Source: Chloroflexota bacterium
GTDB taxonomy: Bacteria; Chloroflexota; JAJPGV01
NCBI GenBank assembly: GCA_035299885.1
Contig: DATGVV010000460.1
Coordinates: 1 to 33,138 of the forward strand
Length of the DNA: 33,138 bases
Direction of reading: 5' to 3'
In this document: in pieces, positions 1-29,858 of the stretch
How positions within the stretch are numbered: position 1 is the first letter of the stretch
Layout of the letters: each line of letters opens with the position of its first letter
Translations under genes and position numbers: made by a program
Notes under the pieces: model-generated
What the model was told of the DNA's origin: nothing
The model's input: only the letters and a program-made list of their open reading frames with translations
Database searches by the model: none

Positions 1-1052
1 CTTCGGGCGCCGCTTCGGCCAAACCCGCGGCCTCTGGCGTCGCGGCGCCGTCGCTGGCCCCGGTGCCCAAGGTCACGCTGCAGCTGACGAAGCCCCTGCC
101 GGCGCTTAACCCGCCCTACACGGTGAAGGCGCGCGTCGGCAGCTCGCTTACGACGGCGCCTTTCTGGTACGCCATTGAGAAGGGCTACTTCGACCAGCTC
201 GGGCTCAAGTTTGAGGAGGTCCAGATCACGCAATCGGCGGACGTCACGGGGCCGCTGACGCAAGGCCAGATCGATATCGCCGGCGTAGCTTTCGCCCCCG
301 GCCTGTATAACGCCGTCAGCCGTGGCGTCGAGGTGCAAGCCGTGGCCGACAACGGCCAGCTGCAGCCGAACCTCGCGGGCTCGGCGGCAGTCGTCAAGAA
401 GGGCGAGCTGGCCAAATATGGGAACGATTGGTGCGCTCTCAAGGGCAAAAAGATTGCCGGCATGACAAATGTCGACGGCTTCTACGCCACGCTGCTGAAG
501 GCCCTGCAGAGCTGCAACTTGTCTGAAAAGGATGTGGACACGTTCCAGCCCGGTTTCGCTCAGGTCAATGCCGCCCTGGCCAATGGCTCGGCCGACGTTG
601 GCTTCAACGTGGAACCGTTCGTCAGCGCGGGCGTGCAGCAGGGCGTTGTCGAGATCTGGCATCAGGCGGATCAGGCGTGGGCCAACCAGCAGATGAACAT
701 GCTGCTGTACGGGCCGCAGTTCATCAAGAACAAGGACGCCGCGCTGCGCTTCATGGTGGCCTATATGGCTGGCGTGCGGGACTACGACCGCGACATCGCG
801 CCCGGTGGCGACGCCAATCAGTTGGGCACTGTGCTGGCCAAGCATCTGCCGGTCAAGGACCCGAACGCCTATTCCAAGATGATCATGATGGGCATCACCA
901 AAAACGGCGCGGTCAACACGCAAGCCCTCGGTGAGGAGATCCAGCTGTTCCAGAAGTCCGGCACCATCCCGCCTGGCCAGGTCAACCTGAGCTGGGTGAA
1001 CAACGACGTCCGCCAGGAAGCCTTGGACCTTCTCGGACCGGAGAAGAAGTAG
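1..1052 (+). CDS. ABC-transporter substrate-binding protein, NMT1/SsuA/TauA-like (5' partial)
   Basis: ORF track 63..1052. The frame stays open back to nt 3 and reads SGAASAKPAASGVAAPSLAP. This is the same Ala/Ser/Pro tether seen after the lipobox of the paralogue at 7294..8442, so GTG-63 is probably internal and the gene is cut by the window edge. Family call by eye only. Confidence 0.7.
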   Translation, partial: SGAASAKPAASGVAAPSLAPVPKVTLQLTKPLPALNPPYTVKARVGSSLTTAPFWYAIEKGYFDQLGLKFEEVQITQSADVTGPLTQGQIDIAGVAFAPGLYNAVSRGVEVQAVADNGQLQPNLAGSAAVVKKGELAKYGNDWCALKGKKIAGMTNVDGFYATLLKALQSCNLSEKDVDTFQPGFAQVNAALANGSADVGFNVEPFVSAGVQQGVVEIWHQADQAWANQQMNMLLYGPQFIKNKDAALRFMVAYMAGVRDYDRDIAPGGDANQLGTVLAKHLPVKDPNAYSKMIMMGITKNGAVNTQALGEEIQLFQKSGTIPPGQVNLSWVNNDVRQEALDLLGPEKK

Positions 1053-1574
1053 CTAGGCGCGGGCAATGTGGCGGGGCACGAACAGCCCCACCGGCAGGCG
1101 CTGGCCTTTGATGGTGAGCACGGCCTCAAGCACGCTAGTCTCGATCATGGCGGGGTCGTGAATAACCACATACGGGATATTGAGCCCGGCCAGGGTGGCC
1201 TCGCCCACCATACGGCTGGCGCCGTGATAGTCGAACTGCTCACCCAGCACGCGGTTGTGGCTGGCGATGATGAGCAACGGGGTGCGCTGCAACAGCCCGC
1301 GCGCCAGGATCAGGCCGGACATGCCCAGGCCCGAGCCCTCCATGAGGGCCACCGGCAGCTTGCCGCCGAGGTAGGCGCCCATGGCGACAGCGATGCCCTC
1401 ATCCTCGCGCGAACAGATGACCGTCTGGACGTCTGGGTCGGCCTCCAACAACTCGTCGATCGGTGAGAGCAGGCTGTCGGGCACGTAGACGGCGAAATCG
1501 ATTCCGGCCTGCCGCATGGCGCGATGGAAGGCCCGCGCGTTGTCCAGGTTATAGCCAGGGGCTGGCGTGCTCAC
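1053..1574 (-). CDS. TPP-dependent decarboxylase, N-terminal (pyrimidine-binding) half; ComD-like sulfopyruvate/phosphonopyruvate decarboxylase alpha subunit
   Basis: 173 aa. SREDEGIAVAMGAYLGGKLPVALMEGSGLGMSG fits the TPP-enzyme N-terminal domain with its catalytic Glu. Stand-alone size matches ComD. The GTG start overlaps the upstream stop (GTGA at 1571-1574). Confidence 0.75.
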   Translation of the reverse strand: MSTPAPGYNLDNARAFHRAMRQAGIDFAVYVPDSLLSPIDELLEADPDVQTVICSREDEGIAVAMGAYLGGKLPVALMEGSGLGMSGLILARGLLQRTPLLIIASHNRVLGEQFDYHGASRMVGEATLAGLNIPYVVIHDPAMIETSVLEAVLTIKGQRLPVGLFVPRHIARA

Positions 1575-3736
1575 GCCGGCGCCAGCTGCCGTTGTCTCAG
1601 CGCTACATGGACATCCTCGGCCTTCACCGGCAGGTGGTCGATTTTCACGCCCACCGCGTCGTACACCGCGTTGGCATAGGCGGCCGCGAAGGGCAGGTTG
1701 CTCAGCTCAGAGGTTTGCTTGGCGCCGTACGGTCCGGGGCCGGCATCATCGGTGATCAGCAGCAACTCGTGCTCGGGCACATCGCAAATGGTGGGCAGTT
1801 TGTACTCGTGCAGGCCCGCCGCCTCGACTAGGCCATCCACGATCCGCAGATCCTCCATGGCCGCCGCGCCCAGGCCCATTAGCAAGCCGCCTTCTATTTG
1901 GCCCGTAACACCTGTGGCGTTGAGGACCGTGCCCACGTCGTAGGCGCCGGTCACCTTACAGACGTGTACCTGGCCCGTCTCGGGGTCCACCTCAACCTCC
2001 ACCACCTGGGCCACGAAGCTGGTGGTGCTGGGCGGATGCCAGTTCTCGTAGCGGGCTTCAGCGGAAAGGGCGCCGGCCGCCCCGGCGTCGATTTTCTGGC
2101 GCAGCTCCGTGGCTGCTCGGAGCGCCGCCTGTCCGGCGCCGTGGGTGACCGCGCTGGCCGAGCTGCCGCGGTCCCACAACCCCGAATCTGTGCTCAGCAC
2201 CTCGACCCGGATGTGCTCCGGAGGCAGGCCCAGCTCGTTGGCGACGATCTGGGCCAGGATGGTGTGCGCGCCGGAGCCCTGGTCGAACACCGCGATCTGG
2301 AGCGTGACCTCGCCTCCGGCGTCCCGCACGACCCGAGCGGTTGACGCGCCCGGGCCGATGGGGCTCTGGCACAGGGCCAGACCGCGGCCCATGCCCGGCT
2401 TCTTGGGCTCGTCCCAACCGGATGCTCGTCGAACGGCGTCCAGGCATTCCCGCAGCCTGACCGAGGACCATGGCTGGCCTTCGATACCCATGTCCCCAGG
2501 CTGCACGCCGTTCTTCAATCGAAACTCGAAGGGACCCATGCCCAGGGCGCGCGCTAATCGGTCCATCTCGACCTCGCACGGAAACACCGTCTGCAGCCCG
2601 CCGGGCGCGCGCATATGGCCGCAGGGCACCGTGTTGGTGTAGACGATCTGGCTTTCGTAGGCGTGGTTCGGAATGCGGTACACGCCGTGGACGTAGTGCC
2701 CTCCGGCCAGCTCGGCGTTGGCTATCGGCTTGAAGCCGGCATAGGCGCCGCCGGCAAACGTGGCCTTTACGTGGCGGGCCACGATGGTGCCATCGCGCTT
2801 CAGCCCGGTGCGAATCGTCACCCACGCAGGGTGCCGCGGATCGCCGGCCTGCATGTCTTCGACTCCGGAGAGGATGATGCGCACCGGCTGGCCGGCGGCG
2901 CGCGACAGGAAGTAGGCCAGCGGCACATGCATGGGCGAACCCTTGCCGCCGAAATCGCCGCCAACATACAGCGGCTCGACGACGATGCGCTCGGGGGACA
3001 GTTCGAGATCGCGGGCCAGCAGCCCGCGCAGAACGAAAGGCGATTTGGTCGAGGCCCAGACCCGCACCGTCCCGTCCGGCTCGGCGGAGACGATGCAGCT
3101 GTGCGGCTCGATGTAGCCCTGGTGCTGAGCGGGCGTGCGATAGGTGTGCTCGAAGACCACGTCGGCCTCTCTGAACCCGCGCTCCAGATCGCCGCTGACG
3201 GTCAGCCGGTAGGAGCACAGGTTGGGGATATCGGGCAGCGGCTCGTCCGGCCAGCCAGGCTGGCGCAAATCGCGGCGGTAGCTGGCGAAATCGGGGTGCA
3301 GCAGCGGCGCGCCCGGTTTCGTGGCTGCGAAGGGGTCGAGCACGGCCGGCAGTTCCTCGTAGCCCACCTCTATGAGCCGCAGCGCCTCCTCGGCGGTCTG
3401 GCGGTCAACCGCCGCGACAGCCGCCACCGGATCGCCGATGAAGCGCACCCGGTCGGTGCACAGGACTGGCACATCGGCGATAGCTCGCCCGAACAGCGCG
3501 CCCCCGATGTCGGCACCCGTCAGCACCGCCCGCACGCCAGCAAGCGATCGCGCACGGCTGACGTCGACGCGCGCGATGCGAGCGTGGGGCCACGGGCCGC
3601 GCAAGATCGCGCCCCACAAGCAGCCAAGCACATCCACATCCGCCGTATAGGTCGCCTGGCCCGTGACTTTGAGCCGGCCGTCAACCCGGGGCACGGCGGC
3701 GCCAATTGTTGACTCGCCGTCCGCGTAGGACCTCAA
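1571..3736 (-). CDS. xanthine dehydrogenase/aldehyde oxidase-family molybdopterin-binding large subunit
   Basis: Tracked ORF is 1571..3895. PRVDGRLKVTGQATYTAD near the N-terminus and VGGDFGGKG mid-protein are typical of CoxL/XdhB-type Moco subunits. The first 53 tracked codons overlap the hydrolase gene. I place the start at TTG 3736, which shares bases with the hydrolase TGA (TTGA), giving 721 aa. Confidence 0.8.
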   Translation of the reverse strand: MRSYADGESTIGAAVPRVDGRLKVTGQATYTADVDVLGCLWGAILRGPWPHARIARVDVSRARSLAGVRAVLTGADIGGALFGRAIADVPVLCTDRVRFIGDPVAAVAAVDRQTAEEALRLIEVGYEELPAVLDPFAATKPGAPLLHPDFASYRRDLRQPGWPDEPLPDIPNLCSYRLTVSGDLERGFREADVVFEHTYRTPAQHQGYIEPHSCIVSAEPDGTVRVWASTKSPFVLRGLLARDLELSPERIVVEPLYVGGDFGGKGSPMHVPLAYFLSRAAGQPVRIILSGVEDMQAGDPRHPAWVTIRTGLKRDGTIVARHVKATFAGGAYAGFKPIANAELAGGHYVHGVYRIPNHAYESQIVYTNTVPCGHMRAPGGLQTVFPCEVEMDRLARALGMGPFEFRLKNGVQPGDMGIEGQPWSSVRLRECLDAVRRASGWDEPKKPGMGRGLALCQSPIGPGASTARVVRDAGGEVTLQIAVFDQGSGAHTILAQIVANELGLPPEHIRVEVLSTDSGLWDRGSSASAVTHGAGQAALRAATELRQKIDAGAAGALSAEARYENWHPPSTTSFVAQVVEVEVDPETGQVHVCKVTGAYDVGTVLNATGVTGQIEGGLLMGLGAAAMEDLRIVDGLVEAAGLHEYKLPTICDVPEHELLLITDDAGPGPYGAKQTSELSNLPFAAAYANAVYDAVGVKIDHLPVKAEDVHVALRQRQLAPA

Positions 3737-4563
3737 TGGTCCAGAAAGTCCAGCACCAGCCGGTTGAACTCGCCGGCGTGCTCCACCTGCGCCCAGTGGC
3801 CGCAATGGGAGAAGACGTGCATGCGCGCGTTCTGGAACGAGCGCAGCATCAGCAAACCCACATCCAGCGCTCCGAAACGATCGTCTGCGCCCCACACGAT
3901 CAGGGCGGGGCAGGCCACCTTGGGGAGCTGGCTGGCCAGGCTCTCGCCAGCGGGCGGATGGGCGGTCATCACCCTCACGACATCGGGATCGATGCTGGCC
4001 TGGTAGCGCTCCTCGAGGATGTCTTCGGTCAGGAAGGACGAGTCGTACAGCAGCGTCTGCAGCAGGGTCCGCAGCTTCTCGCGAGAGGGGCCCTCGCCCT
4101 TGTAGTAGCCGCCGATAAGCTTAATGCCTTCCAGCGGCATAGGGCAGAACAGGCTCGGACTGCCTGTGCCGCTACCGATCACCACCAGCTTACTGACACG
4201 TTCGGGGCTGTCGGTTGCGAGCTTGATGGCCACCTGGCCGCCCATCGAGTTGCCGACGAAATGCGCCTTGTCGATGCCCAGCTTGTCCATGAAGTCGCGG
4301 AAGACGTTGGCGCAGTAGGTCAGCCGCCCGCCCTCGATGATGACCTTGGCCGAGCCGCCATACTGCGGCATGTCGACCAGCAGCGCCCGGTACTTGGCCG
4401 CGAAGGCATCGGCGTTCTGCTTGAAGTTGCTCCAGCTGCTGGCTCCAGGGCCGGCGCCGTGGATCATGATCACCGGATAGCCGGAGCCAACCTCGTTGTA
4501 ATGGATTTTGATGCCGGCCGCCTGGATATCGCGGCTGGTGGCTTGCTCGCTGCTGATGGCCAT
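3733..4563 (-). CDS. alpha/beta-fold meta-cleavage-product (C-C bond) hydrolase, CarC/BphD/MhpC-like
   Basis: 276 aa. HGAGPGASSW oxyanion region and GNSMGG nucleophile elbow. The Asp in WGADDRF and the His in SHCGHW complete a Ser-Asp-His triad. GAGGAA Shine-Dalgarno about 5 nt upstream of ATG 4563. Confidence 0.85.
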   Translation of the reverse strand: MAISSEQATSRDIQAAGIKIHYNEVGSGYPVIMIHGAGPGASSWSNFKQNADAFAAKYRALLVDMPQYGGSAKVIIEGGRLTYCANVFRDFMDKLGIDKAHFVGNSMGGQVAIKLATDSPERVSKLVVIGSGTGSPSLFCPMPLEGIKLIGGYYKGEGPSREKLRTLLQTLLYDSSFLTEDILEERYQASIDPDVVRVMTAHPPAGESLASQLPKVACPALIVWGADDRFGALDVGLLMLRSFQNARMHVFSHCGHWAQVEHAGEFNRLVLDFLDH

Positions 4564-4592
4564 GGGATTCCTCTTCGAAGACTAGGTCTCCT

Positions 4593-5768
4593 ATGATGCA
4601 CATATTGGAAGAAGATGCTGTGCTGAGCACCGGCGGCAAGCCATGGCAGCCGTACCTCGAGGCGGCGCTCGGTTTTCGGAACCACTGGTACCCCGCCTGC
4701 TACAGCCATGAGCTGGCCGAGGGCCAGGCCCGCGGCGAGCAGCTGTTGGGCGAAAGGCTGCTCCTGAAGCGCATTGACGGCCGTGTGTACGCGGTACAGG
4801 ACCGCTGCCTTCACCGGGGCGTGGCCTTCTCAGTGCGGCCGGAGTGTCACAGCAAGAACACCATCAGCTGCTGGTATCACGGCTTCACCTATGACCTGCG
4901 CGACGGATCGCTGGTCGCGGTCATCACCGATCCCGAAAGCTCGCTGGTCGGCAAGCTCCGCCTGCAGACATACCCGGCGCAGGAGCACAAGGGCCTCGTC
5001 TTCGTCTTCATCGGCGACATGGATCCGCCCGAGCTGAAGCTGGACCTGCAGCCCGGCTTTCTCGACGCTGATCTGGCCATCCATGCCAACGGTGAGCGGC
5101 AGCTCGTCCACAGCAACTGGCGTCTGGCGGCGGAGAACGGCTTTGACGCGGCGCACATCTACATCCACCGCAACTCGCCGCTGATCCTCGAACAGCGGCG
5201 GCCGCTCCCGCTGGCCACCATCCCGGCTTCTCGCGAGGGGATGGTGGTGGCTGAGGACGGGCAGCCTAAAGGGGTGGTGAAAGGCCGCGGCGCACGCAAG
5301 CCGGTGTGGGAGGTGGAGATCGAGGGAGTGAAGGTCACGTCCCGTTTTCTGCCTGGCCCTGACACCCCGCGCACCTCGCCGGATACTTCCATGTGGCTGC
5401 CGTGCGGGCTCAAGGTCGATCCCTTTCCTACTGAGGGCATCATGCAGTTCGAGTGGTACGTGCCCGTCGACGAGCACAGCCACACCTATTTCGTGACCTG
5501 GGGACGCCGCACCACATCCGATGCGGAGGCTGCCGAGTTCTCGCGCGAGATCGAGGATCACTGGAAGGATCTGGTGGTGGATAAGTTCAACGTGGACGAC
5601 GTTACCGCCCGCGAGGCGATGGAGCGCTTCTACTCAGAAGAGGACGGCTGGCAGCGCGAACGGCTCTACCGTCCCGACCTCATCATTACGGAGTGGCGGA
5701 AGCTGGCCAGCGCCCATAATCGCGGTATCCAGCGGCTATCTGCGCCGCAGTCTGCCGGAGGTGTCTGA
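4593..5768 (+). CDS. Rieske non-heme-iron oxygenase, alpha-only CarAa (carbazole 1,9a-dioxygenase) / OxoO-like terminal oxygenase
   Basis: 391 aa. Rieske CLHRG...CWYHG and mononuclear-iron DAAHIYIH motifs. Blocks along the full length match my memory of Pseudomonas CarAa: LGFRNHWYP, RIDGRVY..DRCLHRGV, SNWRLAAENGFD, WLPCGLKVDPFP, MQFEWYVPVDE, AREAMERFY, WRKLASAHNRGIQ. Confidence 0.9.
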   Translation: MMHILEEDAVLSTGGKPWQPYLEAALGFRNHWYPACYSHELAEGQARGEQLLGERLLLKRIDGRVYAVQDRCLHRGVAFSVRPECHSKNTISCWYHGFTYDLRDGSLVAVITDPESSLVGKLRLQTYPAQEHKGLVFVFIGDMDPPELKLDLQPGFLDADLAIHANGERQLVHSNWRLAAENGFDAAHIYIHRNSPLILEQRRPLPLATIPASREGMVVAEDGQPKGVVKGRGARKPVWEVEIEGVKVTSRFLPGPDTPRTSPDTSMWLPCGLKVDPFPTEGIMQFEWYVPVDEHSHTYFVTWGRRTTSDAEAAEFSREIEDHWKDLVVDKFNVDDVTAREAMERFYSEEDGWQRERLYRPDLIITEWRKLASAHNRGIQRLSAPQSAGGV

Positions 5769-6701
5769 GTGCCACTAGAGCTGGGGCTGGCTTCCTCTCA
5801 CGCCCCCAGCATGTTTGCGCCTGTGGACAAGTGGCCGGCCATTTACGACATCCTGGCCGGCGCCGTCCCGGCCCCGCCGGAGCTGGCCAGCGAGACGCGC
5901 GAGGTCCTGGAGGGCTACGCCGAGCGCATCAAGCACGGCTTCGGCGTGCTGCAGCAGCAGCTGGCGGCCTACAAGCCCGACGCGCTGGTCATTGTGGGCG
6001 ACGATCAGAACGAGGTGTTTGGGCCAGCCTTCAATGCCTCGATGGCCATCTTCCTGGGCGAGGAGGTCTCGGGCTCGACAAGCATTGGCTTTTTAGGTGA
6101 GCCGCTGGACAAGAACCACCTCCACTTCCGCTGCCATCGAGAGCTGGCCGAGGTGCTGCTGGCCCGGCTGGTGGAGCAGGGCTTCGACCTGGCCTGGATG
6201 CGCGAGCTAAAGCCAATCAGCCGGCCGCTGGCTGGCATCGGGCACGCCTTCAGCCGGCCCGCCAACGCCGTCGGCGTGCGCGAGCTGGATATCCCCATCG
6301 TGCCCCTGTTCCTCAATGCCTACGACCATCCGATGCCATCCGCGCGCCGCTGCCACGAGCTCGGAAAGGCGATCCGGCAGGCATTCGACGGCCGGCCCGA
6401 GCGCATCGCGCTGTATGCCTCGGGTGGGCTGGCCCACGATCCACGCGGGCCCCGTTCAGGCTGGCTGGACGAGCCATTGGACAGGTGGGTGCTGTCGCGG
6501 CTTGAGGACGGTCGTGCGGCGGAGCTTACCAGTCTGTTCACCTTTGATTCGGACGCGGTCCGCAGCGGCACGGGCGAGATCCGCAGCTGGATCACCGCCG
6601 CGTCGGCGTTCGAGGGCCAACCCGCCACGGTCGTGGACTATATTCCCGCCCGGCATGCCGTCACCGGCCTAGCCTTTGCCTACTGGCCGGCCTCCGCCTG
6701 A
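5769..6701 (+). CDS. class III (LigB-superfamily) extradiol ring-cleavage dioxygenase, single-subunit MhpB/CarBb-like
   Basis: 310 aa. The GTG start is the nucleotide right after the Rieske TGA. LigB landmarks: ASSHAP, GIGHAFSRP, ASGGLAHDP, GTGEIRSW. No LigA/CarBa-like small-subunit ORF lies next to it. Confidence 0.8.
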   Translation: MPLELGLASSHAPSMFAPVDKWPAIYDILAGAVPAPPELASETREVLEGYAERIKHGFGVLQQQLAAYKPDALVIVGDDQNEVFGPAFNASMAIFLGEEVSGSTSIGFLGEPLDKNHLHFRCHRELAEVLLARLVEQGFDLAWMRELKPISRPLAGIGHAFSRPANAVGVRELDIPIVPLFLNAYDHPMPSARRCHELGKAIRQAFDGRPERIALYASGGLAHDPRGPRSGWLDEPLDRWVLSRLEDGRAAELTSLFTFDSDAVRSGTGEIRSWITAASAFEGQPATVVDYIPARHAVTGLAFAYWPASA

Positions 6702-6711
6702 CGGCCCGCCC

Positions 6712-7290
6712 GTGAACCGCATCGAGTGCATCGAGGTCTTCGCCAGGCTTCGAGGCAGGGCAATCGTCATCGTGAGCCCCGGCTACACCGGCCACGAGCT
6801 GGCCGCCGCGGGGCATGACGACGCGACCATCTACAACATGGACATGCCGTACAGCTCACCCTTGTGCCTGGGCCTGGCGTTGGCCTGCTCGCAGGAGCGC
6901 GTGGTCGCCCTGGAAGGCGACGGCTCCATGCTTATGGCGCTGGGTGTGCTGACCACCATTGGCCGCTACCAGCCCCGGAACCTGGCAATCATCGTCTTCG
7001 ACAACCGCCTCTATCTGACCACGGGCAGTGGCACTGTGCGGACAGCCGAGGTCGATTTCGCCGCCATGGCTCGCGCTGCCGGTATCGAGCGCTCATGCAA
7101 GGTCGAGGACATCTCCGGCTTTGAAGACGCCGCTCGGCAGGCTCTCACCGAGCCTGGGCCGTGGTTCATCTGCGCCTCGGTGGATGGTTCCGACCGCGGC
7201 GATCCGCGAGGCCGAGCACACCTCCCCGGCGACCTGGTCGAACAGGCCGTACTGTTTCAAAAGGCGCTGCGAGAGCGCCAGGGAGATTGA
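6712..7290 (+). CDS. TPP-dependent decarboxylase, C-terminal (pyrophosphate-binding) half; ComE-like beta subunit
   Basis: Tracked ORF is 6676..7290. I prefer GTG 6712, which is in frame and 10 nt after the upstream stop. LEGDGSMLMALGVLTTIGRYQPRNLAIIVFDN is the GDG-x(24-27)-N TPP/Mg motif. Confidence 0.75.
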   Translation: MNRIECIEVFARLRGRAIVIVSPGYTGHELAAAGHDDATIYNMDMPYSSPLCLGLALACSQERVVALEGDGSMLMALGVLTTIGRYQPRNLAIIVFDNRLYLTTGSGTVRTAEVDFAAMARAAGIERSCKVEDISGFEDAARQALTEPGPWFICASVDGSDRGDPRGRAHLPGDLVEQAVLFQKALRERQGD

Positions 7291-13356: not shown

Positions 13357-13514
13357 GACTGACAGGCTGCAAAATGCTAGGCTGAAGGCCTAGAAGCGAG
13401 GCCGAAATAGGCGTAAGCCGGCCCAGGCGGCCACGAGCCAGGCTGCCCTGCCTCGAGGAAATGGGCCGCCGATGGTTTTCGGCTGAACTTCTAAGCTGTA
13501 AGCGGAGGTTCGGC

Positions 13515-14735
13515 ATGGCAACCACCCAGGAACAGAACGAGCGACTGACCCGCGTCGGGCCCGGCACGGCGATGGGCGATCTGCTGCGCCGCTACTGGCA
13601 GGTGGTGGGCACCGCGACCGAGCTCGAGCAGGAGCCGGTGCAGCGGGTGCGGCTGCTCGGCGAAGACCTCACGCTGTTCCGCACCGAGCGCGGCGAGTAC
13701 GGCCTGGTGGACGAGGTGTGCCCACATCGCTGCATGTCACTGGAGTACGGCATTCCGCAGGAGGCCGGCCTGCGCTGCGCCTATCACGGTTGGCTGTGGG
13801 CGCCGGACGGCCACTGCCTGGAGCAGCCATTCGAGGAGACGGTCAACCCCGAAGCGCGGTTCAAGGACAAGGTCCGCATCAAGGCCTACCCGGCCCAGGA
13901 GCTAGGTGGGCTCATCTTCACCTACATGGGCCCGCGGCCCGCGCCGCTGCTGCCCCGCTGGGATGTGCTCGTCCGCGATGACTTGGACGCGGCCATCGAG
14001 ATTCACCCGCTGCCCTGCAGCTGGCTGCAGTGCATGGACAATTCCATGGACCCGGTTCACTTCGAGCACCTGCACGCCGTGTTCGGTAACTATCAGCGCA
14101 AGAAGCTGGGCATGCCGCCGGCTATGTTCCCGGCCAAGCACATCAAGATCGGCTTCGATCGCTTCGAGTACGGCATCATGAAGCGCCGCCTCCTCGAGGG
14201 CGAGCCGGAGGATATCGACGATTGGCAGATCGGTCACCCGGTGCTGTTCCCGAACACCCTGGCGGTGGGCGAAGAGGACCGGCCGATGCTCCAGATCCGC
14301 ATCCCGGTGGACGACACGACCACGCTCCACCTGCAGTACGTGACCACCCCGCGCGAGATGGGCGCGCCGCGCAAGCCGGTCCCGGTCGTGCGCCGGTCGC
14401 TGTTCGAGCCGGACGGCAAGATCTTGGCCGTCAACATCCCCAAGCAGGACGAGCTGGCGTGGGTTGCGCAGGGGCCAATCTCACAGCGCACGCGCGAGCA
14501 CCTGGGGGCGAGCGACGTGGGCGTGATCCTGTATCACAAGATGCTGCATGAAGAGATGGACAAAGTGCAGGGTGGACAGGATCCCCTCGGCACTGTGCGC
14601 GATCCCGCGGTCAACGAGCCAATGATCCGCATCCGGCGCGAGCGAGTTGGCTACGAGGCCTTCAAGGGCGACTTCGAGGAGGAGTGGAACGACATCGAAG
14701 GCGCGCGTTCCCTCTTCGCCGCGGCCAAGGCCTAG
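13515..14735 (+). CDS. Rieske non-heme-iron oxygenase alpha subunit (KshA/VanA/LigXa-like, alpha-only type)
   Basis: Tracked ORF is 13461..14735. ATG 13515 has GGAGG 7 nt upstream. CPHRC...CAYHGW Rieske motif and CMDNSMDPVHFEHLH iron site. Confidence 0.85.
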   Translation: MATTQEQNERLTRVGPGTAMGDLLRRYWQVVGTATELEQEPVQRVRLLGEDLTLFRTERGEYGLVDEVCPHRCMSLEYGIPQEAGLRCAYHGWLWAPDGHCLEQPFEETVNPEARFKDKVRIKAYPAQELGGLIFTYMGPRPAPLLPRWDVLVRDDLDAAIEIHPLPCSWLQCMDNSMDPVHFEHLHAVFGNYQRKKLGMPPAMFPAKHIKIGFDRFEYGIMKRRLLEGEPEDIDDWQIGHPVLFPNTLAVGEEDRPMLQIRIPVDDTTTLHLQYVTTPREMGAPRKPVPVVRRSLFEPDGKILAVNIPKQDELAWVAQGPISQRTREHLGASDVGVILYHKMLHEEMDKVQGGQDPLGTVRDPAVNEPMIRIRRERVGYEAFKGDFEEEWNDIEGARSLFAAAKA

Positions 14736-19598: not shown

Positions 19599-20710
19599 GC
19601 GCGATACGAGTGCTGGTTGGCACGCGCAAGGGCGCGTTCGTGCTGACGTCTGACGGAAAACGCGAGCGGTGGGACGTGGCCGGGCCGCATTTTGGCGGCT
19701 GGGAGATCTACCACGTGAAAGGATCGCCCGCGGATCCGAACCGGCTGTATGCCTCCCAGAGCAGCGGCTGGTTTGGCCAGGTGATCCAACGCTCGGACGA
19801 CGGCGGCAAGACCTGGGAGCCGGTGGGTAACAAGTTCGAGTACCAAGGCGACACTGGCACGCACAAGTGGTACGACGGCACGGACCGGCCCTGGGAGTTC
19901 ACGCGCGTCTGGCATCTCGAGCCGTCGCTGACGGATCCGGATGCCGTGTATGCCGGGGTCCAGGACGCCGCCCTGTTCCGCTCCACCGACGGCGGCCAGA
20001 CGTGGCAGGAGCTGCCCGGGCTGCGCGGCCACGGGACGGGCTCTTCCTGGCAGCCGGGCGCTGGCGGGCTGTGCCTGCACACCATCATCCTCGACCCCAC
20101 GCATGCCGAGCGGATGTTCATCGCCATCTCGTCCGCGGGCGCGTTCCGGACGGACGATGGCGGCAAGACCTGGCGGCCGATTACCCGCGGCTTGCGATCG
20201 GAGTTCATGCCCGATCCCACTGCCGAGATCGGCCACTGCGTCCACCGCATGGCGATGCACCCCTCACGGCCAGGGGTGCTGTTCATGCAGAAGCACTGGG
20301 ATGTGATGCGCAGCGACGACGGCGGCGACAACTGGCACGAGGTCAGCGGCAACCTGCCCACGGACTTCGGCTTCACGATCGACGTGCACGCGCACGATCC
20401 CGAGACCATTTACGTGGTGCCGATCAAGAGCGACTCCGAACACTACCCGCCCGACGGCAAGCTGCGGGTGTACCGCAGCCGCAAGGGCGGGGACGAGTGG
20501 GAAGCGCTGACGAAGGGGCTGCCGCAGAGCGACTGCTACGTGAACGTGCTGCGCGACGCCATGGCCGTCGACTCGCTCGACCCGTGCGGTGTGTACTTCG
20601 GCACCACCGGCGGGCAGGTGTATGCCTCGGCCGATGCTGGGGACAGCTGGCAGCCGATCGTGCGAGACCTCCCTTCGGTGCTGTCGGTGGAGGTCCAGAC
20701 GCTGCCGTGA
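19595..20710 (+). CDS. cytoplasmic BNR/Asp-box repeat beta-propeller protein
   Basis: This is the in-frame C-terminal 371 codons of tracked ORF 19175..20710. ATG 19595 has AAAGGAG 7 nt upstream and overlaps the permease TGA (ATGA). Five SxDxGxxW Asp-boxes: [40 protein letters not shown]. No signal peptide. Confidence 0.85.
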
Positions 20711-21003
20711 TCCGCGTCGTGCTTCCGGCGCACCTGCGGACGCTGGCGCACATCAACGGCGAGGTGCAGCTCCAGATTAACGGCCAGGTCACGCAGGGCA
20801 CGGTGCTCGACGCGCTGGAGGCGTCATATCCGATGCTGCGGGGGACGATGCGGGACCAGCTCACGAGGAAGCGCCGAGCGTTCGTTCGGTTCTTCGCCTG
20901 CGAGCAGGACGTGTCGCACGATCCACCGGATACGCCACTGCCGGAGGCGATTGCGGCGGGCAAGGAGCCGTTTCTGATCGTTGGAGCCATCGCTGGCGGT
21001 TAG
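20707..21003 (+). CDS. MoaD/ThiS-like ubiquitin-fold (beta-grasp) protein with C-terminal Gly-Gly
   Basis: 98 codons hidden at the 3' end of tracked ORF 19867..21003. GTG 20707 overlaps the propeller TGA (GTGA). It starts [14 protein letters not shown] and ends [10 protein letters not shown]-stop, the layout of sulfur-carrier/Ubl proteins. Confidence 0.75.
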
Positions 21004-22243
21004 GCCCGCTCGGACGAAGGTGGTCATCGTCGGCGCGGGCTTTGGTGGGCTGAACGCGGCCAGGCAGCTCGGCGGCAAGCCGCTGGATGTGCTGCTGATC
21101 GACCAGCACAACTACCACCTGTTCCAGCCGCTGCTGTATCAGGTGGCCACTGCCGGTCTGGAGCCAGGCGAGATCGCCTACCCGGTGCGGCGCATCTTGC
21201 ACCGCTATGCCAACGTCGAGTTCCGCCTGGGGCGAGTGAGCCGAGTAGATGCGGCCCGGCGCTGCCTCGAGATCGAGGGCCGCGAAATCGGCTACGACTA
21301 CCTCATCTTGGCGGCGGGCAGCGACAGCAACTTCTTTGGCATCGAGCCGCTGGCGCAGCACAGCTACACGCTCAAGCACATCGACGGCGCGGTGCGGCTG
21401 CGGAACCACATCCTGAGCTGTTTCGAGCGCGCGGCGGTGGAGGAGGACGGCGCCAAGCGCGCTTCGCTGCTCACCTTCGTCATTGGTGGAGGGGGGCCTA
21501 CGGGCGTGGAGTTTGCCGGCGCGCTGGCGGAGCTCGTCGACATGCTGCTGCGGCGTGACTACAGGACCCTCGCCGGCGGTGAGGTCCGCATCCACCTGGT
21601 GGAGGGCGGCCCCGATCTGCTGAGCATGCTTCACCCGCGCCTGCGCCGCTCGGCGTTACGGGAGCTGCAGCGCCGCGGGGTGCAGGTCATGTGCGACACG
21701 CAGATCCGCGGCTACGACGGCCAGACGGTGGAGCTGTCCACTGGCCAGATGATTCCGGCGGCGACGCTGATGTGGGCCGCGGGCGTGCGCGCGGCCGACC
21801 TGGCCGCCACGGCCGGTGTCGAGCAGGCTCGCGGGGGGCGGCTGCCCGTCCGGCCAACCCTGGAGCTGGCCGATCATCCCGAGATCTACGTGCTGGGCGA
21901 CATGGCCTACTTGGAGGACAAGGGCAAGCCGCTGCCGCAGCTCGCTCCCGTGGCTATCCAACAGGGGCAGCTTGCCGCCGAGAACCTGCTGCGGCGTCTC
22001 GAGGGCCAGGTTCCGCGGGCTTTCCGCTATCGGGATAAAGGCACGCTGGCCACCATTGGCCGGCACGCCGCCGTGGGCGAGATTGGGCCCATCCGCGTTT
22101 CCGGCCCACTGGCCTGGTTCATGTGGCTGGGCGTGCACCTGATCCAGCTGATCGGTTTCCGCAACCGCGTTGCCGTGCTCCTGGATTGGGCCTGGAACTA
22201 CTTCCGGTTCGACAGCGCCATCCGGCTGATCACCAACGAATAG
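20981..22243 (+). CDS. ndh: type II NADH:quinone oxidoreductase (NDH-2)
   Basis: 420 aa. [35 protein letters not shown] and a second [11 protein letters not shown] dinucleotide motif. The start is uncertain. TTG 20981 has AAGGAG 13 nt upstream and overlaps the Ubl gene by 23 nt; GTG 21020 is the alternative. Confidence 0.85.
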
Positions 22244-22432: not shown

Positions 22433-23799
22433 ATGCGGAAGATAAGGACGCACTGGCATCACGCCCACGAGGGGATGGTCCCGCACGATGTTAGTACAGG
22501 CGCAGCCTCCATTGCAGCGGCCATAAGGGCAGAGTCCAATGCCGTCAAGCGCGTTTTCAAGTTGCTTGGGCCAGGCCTCATTACCGGAGCTTCTGACGAC
22601 GACCCATCGGGCATAGGTACATACGCCGTCGCCGGCGCCTCGCTCGGCTTCGGGACGCTGTGGACTGCTCCCATCAGCTTTCCGCTGATGACGGCCGTCC
22701 AGTACATCTGCGCCAAGATCGGGCTGGTCAGCGGTATGGGGCTGGCGAGCGTCCTGCGGCGGAATTATTCGCGCGCGGTGCTCATTCCAGCAATCATAGG
22801 CCTGCTGGTGGCCAACACCATCAACGCCGGTGCTGACATCGGTGCGATTGCGGCCGGAATCAACCTGCTCGTCCCGATCCCGATCCTGTGGCTGATTGCG
22901 CCCGTTGCTGCCCTCATCATCGCGCTCGAGGTCCTCGGCTCTTATCGACTCATAGCGCGCGTCTTCAAATGGCTGACGATCGTCCTGCTGGGTTACATCA
23001 TTGCTGGCGTGATTGCTCGGCCAGAGTGGGGTGACGTGCTGAAGAGCACGTTTGTGCCCGATTCCAGCTCAACACGACCTACCTGGCGGCGATAGTCGCC
23101 ATTTTTGGCACGACCATCTCACCGTATCTCTTCTTCTGGCAAGCGAGTGAAGAAGTGGAAGAGGAAGAGGCCAGAGGATGGACCACGGTGGAGCAGCGGG
23201 AGGCCTCCGTCAGCGACACGGACCTCAAGAACGTTGCCTGGGACGTCAATATCGGGATGGCTTTTGCCAACATCGTCTTCTACTTCATCATCCTTACTGC
23301 CGCGACGACGCTGTTCAAGGCCGGGAAGACCGACATCCAATCAGCGGCCGACGCTGCTCAGGCTCTTGCGCCACTTGCAGGCAACGCGGCGACCATCCTG
23401 TTTGCGATCGGCATCATTGGGGCCGGCTTCCTAGCCGTGCCCGTGCTCACGGCCTCTGGCGCCTACGCGGTGTGTGAGGCGGCGGGTTGGAGCTATGGGC
23501 TCAGCGAAAAGCTCAGCAAAGCCAAGCACTTCTACATCGTGATCTTCGCCGCCACAGTTGTTGGCGTGCTCTTCAACTTCGCTGGCATCAACCCCACCAC
23601 CGCGCTCTTCTGGACGGCCATCATCAATGGCCTGCTGGCGCCCCCACTGCTGGTCGTGATTATGCTCATCTCGAACAACAAGGCTGTGATGGGCACCCGG
23701 ACCAATAGCTGGCTGTTGAACGTCCTTGGCTGGGCGGCAACGGCAATTATGTTCACCGCCGCGAGTGCGCTGATCGTGAGTTGGCGCGCCGGCAGCTGA
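22433..23799 (+). pseudogene. NRAMP-related divalent metal transporter, interrupted by a frameshift (as sequenced)
   Basis: Tracked ORFs 22433..23095 and 23155..23799 are two halves of one transporter (LGPGLITGASDDDPSGIGTY...). The second frame is open from 23035 and reads RFQLNTTYLAAIVAIFGTTISPYLFFWQASEEVEEE, continuing from ...KSTFVP in the first frame. One extra C in the CCC run at 23057-23059 would fuse them. Confidence 0.75.
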
Positions 23800-28664: not shown

Positions 28665-29858
28665 TTGGGGCTCACGGCTGAGGCGCGGCGGCAGCGCTGG
28701 GACGTCGATCTGACGGCGACGGGCCCGGGCACGCCGGGGGGCACATTCTTGCGGCAGTTCTGGCATGCCATCGGGCGGGGCGAGGACTTGCCTGCTGGAC
28801 GCGCGGTGCCCATCCGCATCATGGGCGAGGACTACACCCTCTACCGCGGCATGAGCGGCAAGGCGCAGATCATGGCCTATCGCTGTCCGCACCGCGGGGC
28901 TCAGCTGCACCTGGGCGGGGTGGAAGACGACGAGCTGCGCTGCGTGTACCACGGCTGGAAGTACAACTGCACGGGCCAGTGCGTCGAGACGCCGGCGGAG
29001 GAGCCGGGCTTCGAGAAAAAGGTCAAGGTCCCAGTCTTTCCCACGGAGGAAGCATTTGGCCTGATCTACGGCTATTTCGGGGATGGCCAGCCACCGGCGT
29101 TCCCGCCGTATCCCGAATCACGCGGCGAGGGCGACGTCGAAGCCTGGCCGGTCGAACACGTCCCGTGCAACTACCTGCAGTGCTTCGAGAACAGCATGGA
29201 TGAGGTGCACGTGGCGTTCACACACCAGCCGGGCGGCTCACATGCGGCGCTGGCGCGGGACCTGCCGATCATCACCGCCGAGGAGACGGACTGGGGCATG
29301 CTGCGCTTCGGCACGCGCTCCGACGGCACAGTGCGCCACACGCTGCACTACGCGCCGAATATCGTGCGGGTGATCGTGCCTCCCCTCGCCGGCATGGACG
29401 GCATTGGTGGCTGGCCGGAGATCACCTTCCACTTCACGCCGGTTGACGACGAGAATCACCTGTGGGTGATTTCGGCCAAGGTTCTGGTGAACGGCGATGA
29501 GGCTGAGCGCTACCGCCAGAAACGAGCGGAGTTCTACGAGCGGCGAGCGGCCGCGCCGAGCGTCCGCAGCGTGGTGGACGAGATCTGGGCTGGCAGGCTG
29601 GCTTACGCCGACATCCGCCACCCCGAGCTGGCGATCGTGCAGGACATTGCAGTGCAGGCCGGCCAGGGGAAGATCGCCAATCGGAAGACGGAGCACCTGG
29701 GGCGATCCGATCGCGGCATCACGCTGTGGCGGCGCATCCTGGCGCGGGAGCTGCGCTTAATAGCGGAAGGGCGTCAGCCCAAGAAGTGGCAGCGGCCCTC
29801 GGCGGACGTGATCCCGGTCATCGGCGCCAACATCAGTCGGACGGTGGGGGCAGCCTAG
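28665..29858 (+). CDS. Rieske non-heme-iron oxygenase alpha subunit (paralogue of 13515..14735)
   Basis: 397 aa. CPHRG...CVYHGW Rieske motif and CFENSMDEVHVAFTH iron site. The N-terminal TGPGTPGGTFLRQFW parallels VGPGTAMGDLLRRYW in the paralogue. TTG 28665 is the only in-frame start after the upstream stop. Confidence 0.85.
   Translation: MGLTAEARRQRWDVDLTATGPGTPGGTFLRQFWHAIGRGEDLPAGRAVPIRIMGEDYTLYRGMSGKAQIMAYRCPHRGAQLHLGGVEDDELRCVYHGWKYNCTGQCVETPAEEPGFEKKVKVPVFPTEEAFGLIYGYFGDGQPPAFPPYPESRGEGDVEAWPVEHVPCNYLQCFENSMDEVHVAFTHQPGGSHAALARDLPIITAEETDWGMLRFGTRSDGTVRHTLHYAPNIVRVIVPPLAGMDGIGGWPEITFHFTPVDDENHLWVISAKVLVNGDEAERYRQKRAEFYERRAAAPSVRSVVDEIWAGRLAYADIRHPELAIVQDIAVQAGQGKIANRKTEHLGRSDRGITLWRRILARELRLIAEGRQPKKWQRPSADVIPVIGANISRTVGAA

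Follow-up and report, generated by a model that had tools for sequence, protein, structure and literature searches.

The window analysed here is the whole of contig C460 (DATGVV010000460.1; 33,138 bp) of a Chloroflexota assembly (GCA_035299885.1, here G000; 4.7 Mb, 79.7 % complete, 5.1 % contaminated, with short contigs of N50 7.3 kb), and near its left end it carries a Rieske oxygenase gene of the CarAa/OxoO family beside genes for a LigB-type extradiol dioxygenase and a meta-cleavage-product (MCP) hydrolase. This ring-opening trio is the core of a larger unit, in which a molybdenum (Mo) hydroxylase subunit and both subunits of a thiamine pyrophosphate (TPP)-dependent decarboxylase flank the three genes. 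On balance, these genes probably belong to a pathway comprising seven genes or more, whose substrate would be a carboxylic acid with a benzo-fused N-heterocycle, of the quinoline-carboxylate type, such as kynurenate, quinaldate or quinoline-4-carboxylate. The suggestion of N-heterocyclic acid catabolism comes from resemblance to the published lumichrome route and to the oxoO locus, and the TPP pair, the Mo hydroxylase and a nearby M20 gene point to the chemistry. A preliminary description had set the boundaries of the system at 3733..6701, which is too narrow as it misses all of these additional genes. The genes are real and intact, and represent a new variant of known chemistry. The left end of the window is organized as follows.

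3..1052, forward strand: NMT1-type solute-binding protein (PF09084), 5′ end beyond the contig
1053..1574, reverse strand: TPP-dependent two-subunit decarboxylase, alpha subunit, 173 aa (PF02776)
1571..3736, reverse strand: xanthine-oxidase-family Mo hydroxylase, large subunit only, 721 aa (PF02738/PF20256/PF01315)
3733..4563, reverse strand: BphD/MhpC-type MCP C–C hydrolase, 276 aa (PDB matches, motifs)
4593..5768, forward strand: alpha3 Rieske oxygenase, CarAa/OxoO family, 391 aa (PF11723, metal ligands)
5769..6701, forward strand: single-chain LigB-fold extradiol dioxygenase, 310 aa (PF02900)
6712..7290, forward strand: TPP-dependent decarboxylase, beta subunit, 192 aa, with GDG motif (PF02775)

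Organization of the locus

The open reading frames (ORFs) of the trio, the abutting Rieske and LigB genes and the divergent gap are exactly as first described: the GTG start of the LigB-type gene at 5769 is the first base past the Rieske stop codon, and the starts of the divergent hydrolase and Rieske genes are separated by 29 bp (4564–4592). The TTG start of the Mo gene overlaps the hydrolase stop and the GTG start of the TPP-alpha gene overlaps the Mo-gene stop, such that hydrolase, Mo and TPP-alpha genes are translationally coupled, and the Rieske, LigB and TPP-beta genes are adjacent (the TPP-beta GTG start at 6712 is taken from the gene model). A promoter scan found no sigma-70 site, and with so short a gap the promoters must sit inside genes. 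The divergent start codons are 8 bp apart (6992–7001) in a relative, L098, and in two others, L022 and L102, the genes are all on one strand in the order hydrolase, TPP-beta, Mo and Rieske, which suggests an inversion.

An independent assembly of the region, L096, is 99.7 % identical to the window and reaches 2.4 kb further left, joining contig C700; this stretch encodes an M20 hydrolase and a CBS-like protein. The solute-binding ORF is 418 aa at full length in L096, a counterpart (80 %) occupies the equivalent place in L098, and the protein probably serves in substrate import. Redox partner genes directly beyond the window, which the preliminary description had named as a finding that would refute it, were found neither in the L096/C700 extension nor in the remaining 26 kb of the contig. 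Its statements that the window has no ferredoxin and no reductase are likewise borne out, since only three Rieske motifs are present, all in ORFs of about 400 aa, and the sole flavoprotein among the 35 window ORFs taken into a profile scan is NDH-2-like and 14 kb away.

The oxygenase and its companion enzymes

The Rieske protein matches PF11723 with 249 bits (cut-off 24.4), and the likeness to CarAa previously noted is far above chance, CarAa being its best solved match (E-value 3e-114, compared with 2e-84 for OxoO). The protein is 47 and 51 % identical to two CarAa proteins, themselves 61 % identical to one another, and 38 % to the OxoO orthologue at L014, which served as a proxy for OxoO (863 bits to 1z01). 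The metal ligands are complete (C72/H74/C93/H96 for the Rieske centre, D185 bridging, and H188/H192/D336 for iron) and invariant in 70 homologues, and none of the 17 matches in the genome to the beta subunit family PF00866 lies on C460. In an IQ-TREE tree of 35 rows chosen from 84 dereplicated sequences, the protein is excluded from the CarAa clade (100/94), from a wider seven-row clade (96/99) and from the OxoO group (100/100); the outgroup branches are long and the exclusion rests on these support values. It groups, with moderate support (84/81), with sequences from uncultured Chloroflexota and from Alphaproteobacteria, and its closest titled homologues are from Chloroflexota (73 % for L022). 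Judged by sequence, it is a CarAa/OxoO-family member outside both clades, in a separate and uncharacterised lineage, and the earlier placement with CarAa and OxoO stands for the PF11723 family and not for either clade. The lineage spans 1,404 clusters at E-value ≤1e-40 without a characterised member, and the automatic name 'carbazole dioxygenase' given to many of these is probably wrong.

Three residues are named in PMC9939785 for the selectivity of carbazole 1,9a-dioxygenase (CARDO), Ile262, Phe275 and Gln282. Phe275 and Gln282 are kept in the window protein and Ile262 is replaced by Thr265, equivalent to Thr294 of OxoO; threonine is found at this position in 66 of 70 aligned close homologues. 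Matches to the CARDO pocket are G183, F278, Q285, F332 and N333, and of the OxoO pocket Thr294 is shared and Trp307 is replaced by Phe278, with positions 275 and 282 being variable inside the clade of the window protein. In OxoO, Thr294 probably binds a lactam carbonyl.

The hydrolase has PDB matches to BphD (1e-70), MhpC (2e-62) and CarC (1e-26, with 29–30 % identity) and keeps the Ser-His-Asp motifs of MCP hydrolases (GNSMGG at 104, GADDRF at 225 and CGHWAQ at 254). It scores under the equivalog cut-offs (244 against 462 for TIGR03343, and 269 against 400 for the HsaD model), and on these matches is classed as BphD-like. The LigB-type enzyme keeps H11, H223 and E270 and has Q80 where solved enzymes have an iron-binding His, a substitution present in 78 of 78 aligned homologues (among 120 listed). 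Its model (predicted local distance difference test score, pLDDT, 91.7) has Z scores of 30.0 to LigB, 29.3 to DesB and 28.4 to MhpB (structural identity 23 %), and aligns on 1b4u over 267 residues with a root-mean-square deviation of 2.5. Alignment with CarBb (27–30 % identity) shows an additional helical segment of about 28 residues in the window enzyme, perhaps a built-in lid. The enzyme is a single-chain His/Gln/Glu type that is neither MhpB nor CarBb, and it may resemble DesZ, a single-chain dioxygenase with a DQ motif and an N-terminal insert. The MhpB/MhpC pattern proposed for these two genes is not sustained, as the LigB-type enzyme reaches at most 82.5 bits against MhpB cut-offs of at least 286 (PRK13370) and carries Gln80, and the hydrolase is nearer to BphD. 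As had been claimed, there is no CarBa-like ORF: with all six frames considered, a hidden Markov model of 55 LigA/CarBa sequences gave no match at E≤1 in either the window or L096, and three elsewhere in the genome. A second single-chain DDQ-type LigB paralogue, 58 % identical, is encoded at L186 2604–3491 (G000:C32).

Among the flanking genes, the TPP-alpha product has 72.5 bits to TIGR03845, below the cut-off of 148, and is 43 % identical to an operon gene of an actinomycete (G170). The Mo large subunit keeps its C-terminal Glu motif, and genes for S and M subunits are located elsewhere in the genome; PDB searches with Mo subunits, tried as a route to the substrate, gave no clue. The best PDB match of the M20 protein is 5-nitroanthranilate aminohydrolase (5e-28), and a member of the same family follows the true oxoO-oxoR pair in L014, being 41 % identical to the L096/C700 protein and 53 % to an alphaproteobacterial M20 protein. 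We note that this Cupriavidus plasmid segment (L014 1009–6223) is an unannotated oxoO-oxoR-M20-amidase run, whose M20 and amidase genes are candidates for the steps after 8-hydroxy-2-oxoquinoline. Literature searches that paired oxoO with an amidase or an aminohydrolase, or that dealt with 8-hydroxycoumarin or with 5-nitroanthranilate aminohydrolase, returned nothing on this cluster, most subscription journals lying outside their reach, and a kynurenate review gave no catabolic genes.

Recurrence of the gene set and the proposed pathway

The oxygenase was matched at 156 loci; those with at least 3 kb flanks were kept and dereplicated at 90 %, giving 13 close loci (≥58 %) and 33 others. Several of the window genes are concentrated in the close set, namely those for the hydrolase (12/13 versus 1/33, adjoining the Rieske gene in all 12), M20 (10/13 versus 4/33), TPP (6/13 versus 0/33) and Mo (8/13 versus 2/33) proteins, although some circularity enters the hydrolase count, as close orthologues are more likely to pass the threshold. 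Ferredoxin genes occur at 0/13 close and 4/33 other loci and reductase genes at 1/13 and 1/33, implying that nothing was lost at the window locus; the earlier view of a car module stripped of its ferredoxin, reductase and dioxygenase small subunit does not fit these counts or the separate lineage of the oxygenase, and the missing redox genes are ordinary at locus level, not special to the window. The extradiol slot is interchangeable, with the LigA+CarBb type present in eight of the 13 close loci and the single-chain type in L103–L106, and the C32 paralogue could act as a substitute where the LigB gene is missing, as in L098. In counts that were not dereplicated and include self copies, an isochorismatase-family amidase gene is present in 19 of 85 close loci and none of 75 others, and UbiD in five and none (the same loci). 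The second PDB match of the amidase is 3ot4/3uao, which we take to be the maleamate amidase NicF.

The gene set also recurs in Alphaproteobacteria and, as one operon, in actinomycete G170. The latter was the best of six matches in a search of 401 actinomycete genomes with TPP-alpha only, and wider context was examined for three (G170, G244 and G282). The G170 run (L197 1–14854 and L201 11024–14600) encodes TPP alpha and beta, ATP-binding cassette (ABC) proteins, Mo large, small and medium subunits, M20, a BphD-like hydrolase, LigB and a PF11723 Rieske protein, and ends with MhpD/F/E-type genes, a CxxC-less TrxB-fold reductase and a 7Fe ferredoxin. It is a complete single-run version of the system and the best cloning target. 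G244 has a lum-type cluster, in which the Rieske protein is alpha/beta and the extradiol candidate has a glyoxalase fold, and the context in G282 appears biosynthetic. The lum-type cluster also encodes, at L199 2224–3468, an M20 relative of 414 aa (32 % identity over 201 aa), which is a candidate for LumF, a metallohydrolase so far unassigned. We found no publications on Chloroflexota Rieske carbazole-type oxygenases in a search that left most subscription journals uncovered.

In the pathway that we favour, the solute-binding protein would take the substrate up, TPP alpha/beta would decarboxylate the heterocycle in the manner of LumK/L, and Mo hydroxylation next to the nitrogen, with S and M subunits supplied in trans, would yield a lactam; these last two steps may be in swapped order. 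The alpha3 Rieske enzyme would then oxygenate the benzo ring, at the bridgehead that bears the nitrogen or next to it. This could be an angular dioxygenation, giving a catechol that carries an amide arm as for CarAa and LumCD, or an OxoO-like monooxygenation, between which we see little to choose. The M20 enzyme could strip off the nitrogen by aryl-amine or amide hydrolysis, followed by LigB-type meta cleavage and BphD-type hydrolysis to 2-hydroxypentadienoate and a small acid. Electrons would come from a shared pool, whose carrier is most likely either the conserved 7Fe FdxA or one of the Rieske ferredoxins, with a non-canonical flavoprotein as reductant. A BphD-type hydrolase together with MhpD/F/E suggests a catechol with a carbon-linked arm, which would favour a quinoline-type ring over quinoxaline.

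In PMC12746152 a quinoxaline is decarboxylated by a TPP enzyme, hydroxylated by a xanthine oxidase, opened by a Rieske enzyme and then cleaved by an extradiol enzyme, an order that was reconstituted with a [3Fe-4S]/[4Fe-4S] ferredoxin as donor. At family level the lum pathway has the same two-subunit TPP decarboxylase, Mo hydroxylase, Rieske and extradiol enzymes. It differs in that its Rieske enzyme is of the alpha/beta type and that it employs a P450 and pyrimidine-ring hydrolases, three features not seen in the window cluster, and in proceeding by a pyrone route; our sequence comparison with lum was made through the look-alike G244 cluster, not authentic Lum sequences. The carbazole 1,9a-dioxygenase system (carAaBaBbCAcAd of pCAR1 and pCAR3) shares the PF11723 alpha3 oxygenase, its metal ligands and most pocket residues, and a downstream extradiol enzyme and MCP hydrolase, but the window is without CarBa, CarAc and CarAd and has the TPP, Mo and M20 genes in addition. 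(The KA1 car cluster has no annotated reductase within the 17 kb examined.) OxoO/OxoR (1z01) is alike in family, in Thr294 and, through the L014 proxy, in an adjacent M20 gene of one family, and unlike in its 38 % identity, different clade and Trp307 in place of Phe; no OxoR-like reductase occurs in G000. The likeness to MhpB/MhpC and BphD extends to the LigB fold and the MCP-hydrolase family, although all equivalog cut-offs are missed and an iron His is replaced by Gln in the LigB-type enzyme. The first report of a TPP-dependent decarboxylation of a heterocycle dates from 2025 and concerns a single pathway (PMC12746152). The widespread cluster described here is a concrete candidate for a second use of this reaction, joined to a CarAa/OxoO-family lineage without a characterised member, and supplies candidates for nitrogen removal after OxoO-type hydroxylation.

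Several observations weigh against this assignment. The TPP genes are missing from seven of the 13 close loci, and the related loci in these counts are not independent. The genome is a paralogue bank (35 UbiD, 27 Mo large subunit and 21 LigB matches), so some neighbours may be there by chance. The Mo subunit has as its best PDB match the alpha subunit of 4-hydroxybenzoyl-CoA reductase (2e-97), not quinoline oxidoreductase, and the Mo subunits of the alphaproteobacterial loci are only 28–35 % identical and are not orthologues. The TPP pair is barely nearer to the lum-type pair (36–39 % identity over 87–89 aa) than to a biosynthetic pair (30–32 % over longer stretches). The LigB gene is cleanly absent from L098, where the Rieske protein is 87 % identical and TPP-beta directly follows its gene. 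The G170 Rieske protein is only 30 % identical to that of the window and nearer to a paralogue, C231 (45 %), and the family genomes yielded no TrxB-fold reductase lacking CxxC, their full-length matches carrying this motif.

One alternative, which follows the enzyme logic of PMC12746152, is that the substrate is a quinoxaline derived from lumichrome, or another two-nitrogen benzo-heterocycle, degraded by a Lum variant with a CarAa-type oxygenase. The M20 relative in the G244 lum-type cluster agrees with this, but P450 and hydantoinase genes are absent among the scanned window ORFs, the lum-type Rieske and extradiol proteins are of other types, and the BphD-type hydrolase with MhpD/F/E in G170 would better suit a carbon-linked side chain; we consider it quite improbable. 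Just below it in probability we place the view of the preliminary description, a hybrid pathway with a car-type upper part for carbazole or another tricyclic or biaryl compound and a lower half resembling MhpB/C, in which the TPP and Mo genes would be bystanders. CarAa as best solved match, the five residues that fit the CARDO pocket and the nearness of the hydrolase to BphD speak for it, although the position outside the CarAa clade, the prevalent threonine at Ile262, the LigB scores under the MhpB cut-offs and the coupling of clade-specific TPP genes to both operons (6/13 versus 0/33) do not; what survives of that description is the heteroaromatic substrate and electron supply in trans, not the hybrid car-type pathway.

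Less probable again is the same logic applied to another benzo-fused heterocyclic acid of the indole, quinazoline or benzazole type. The enzyme set fixes the chemistry and not the ring, and the residues at pocket positions 275 and 282 are not constant across the clade, but 2-quinolinones are indicated by the association of M20 with oxoO and by the threonine shared with OxoO (Thr294). An equally low probability attaches to there being no single pathway at all, only a shuffled set of promiscuous paralogues in the genome of a scavenger, some of them perhaps inactive for lack of a reductase. The 97 Rieske matches and many paralogue families, the variable gene order and strand among relatives, the clean LigB indel relative to L098, and divergent starts 29 bp apart with no sigma-70 site would all agree with this, but three phyla retain the gene set, G170 in a single run, and the catalytic residues are all intact.

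Electron supply and other features of the window

The genome has 97 PF00355 matches and 70 long Rieske oxygenase genes. A genome-wide search of the kind proposed in the preliminary description yielded seven Rieske ferredoxins and 13 flavoprotein candidates, found within 6 kb of two and none of the 70 oxygenase genes respectively, counts that are limited by the short contigs. There were no blastp matches to CarAd, OxoR or another FNR, and none to an adrenodoxin-type CarAc. Across five family genomes, one of them 96 % complete, there are 40–87 Rieske matches per genome with PF14759 and PF00970 in none and PF00175 in one (a fragment); as a control, PF14759 was present in four of four other hosts of the cluster. 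Canonical oxygenase reductases are thus absent family-wide. The single PF00175 match (C155, L175) was rejected as a native reductase; it is probably foreign, a contaminant or recent arrival, because it is a fragment (60 % G+C) on a 1.6 kb contig with atypical codon use (score −0.05 per codon, versus a median of 0.26). Also rejected were the window ORF at 20981–22243, which is NDH-2-like by profile, and a YumC-type reductase, for which the best family matches are 26–35 % identical with canonical CxxC or are fusions. Crude cysteine-motif scans gave mostly shadow-ORF noise.

The lead donor candidate is a 7Fe FdxA, because a 7Fe ferredoxin is encoded both in the actinomycete cluster and in the lum-type one, and FdxA is conserved in all five family genomes (C204:4878–5117 in G000). 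When FdxA was modelled with two oxygenase chains the score was 0.51, the best control reaching 0.00, though the controls did not include Rieske ferredoxins. In the benchmark, 116 of 157 solved pairs and two of 215 mismatched ones come up to this mark, of which only 18 solved pairs and both mismatches were at ≤0.60. Contacts agree by at least 78 % and the partner pLDDT is at least 87, and the model lends weak support to FdxA as donor. A GR-fold flavoprotein, C100 (positions 396–1676 of that contig), has an orthologue in all five family genomes (61–89 %) and is related to an aldehyde-oxidoreductase subunit (5e-43) and to BphA4 (1e-25), below the AndAa cut-off. Rieske ferredoxin genes adjoin Rieske oxygenase genes at L184 2850–3185 (G000:C544:11849–12184) and L179 5945–6211 (G003:C42), and another (C519:4730–5062; L180) is inside a suf operon. 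Two clusters whose neighbour labels come from sequence reading, one 2-oxoacid:ferredoxin oxidoreductase-like with a GltD-like Fe-S flavoprotein (L183; G000:C646) and one aldehyde:ferredoxin oxidoreductase-like with a flavoprotein (L182; G000:C108), are possible sources of reduced ferredoxin.

Expansions of Rieske oxygenases are described for SAR202 Chloroflexota in PMC6946804, with up to 62 alpha subunits per genome, and the family genomes are alike in their dozens. Several oxygenases sharing one donor chain are documented for Sphingobium B1 in PMC1847435, although B1 has a canonical reductase and ferredoxin. It is conceivable, if rather unlikely, that the cluster represents an undescribed route for tryptophan-derived or plant quinoline carboxylates (e.g. 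kynurenate) beginning with TPP heterocycle decarboxylation, in hosts whose 40–87 Rieske proteins per genome, without an FNR- or GR-type reductase, are fed by the housekeeping 7Fe FdxA reduced by central metabolism (C100, or the 2-oxoacid or aldehyde:ferredoxin oxidoreductases). The power supply of dozens of Rieske oxygenases in reductase-less Chloroflexota is now testable with FdxA C204, Rieske ferredoxin C544 and flavoprotein C100.

Elsewhere in the window are two further alpha-only Rieske oxygenases (13461–14735 and 28665–29858; PF00355 and LigXa_C-like), also without redox partners. A BNR-repeat (Sortilin-Vps10-like) protein is encoded at 19610–20710, followed by a small ORF and the NDH-2-type flavoprotein gene, and another such protein is encoded beside a related Rieske gene at L103 582–1655. 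An Nramp transporter is split over two ORFs (22433–23095 and 23155–23799, profile positions 2–156 and 183–356) by a frameshift, as a pseudogene or through an assembly error.

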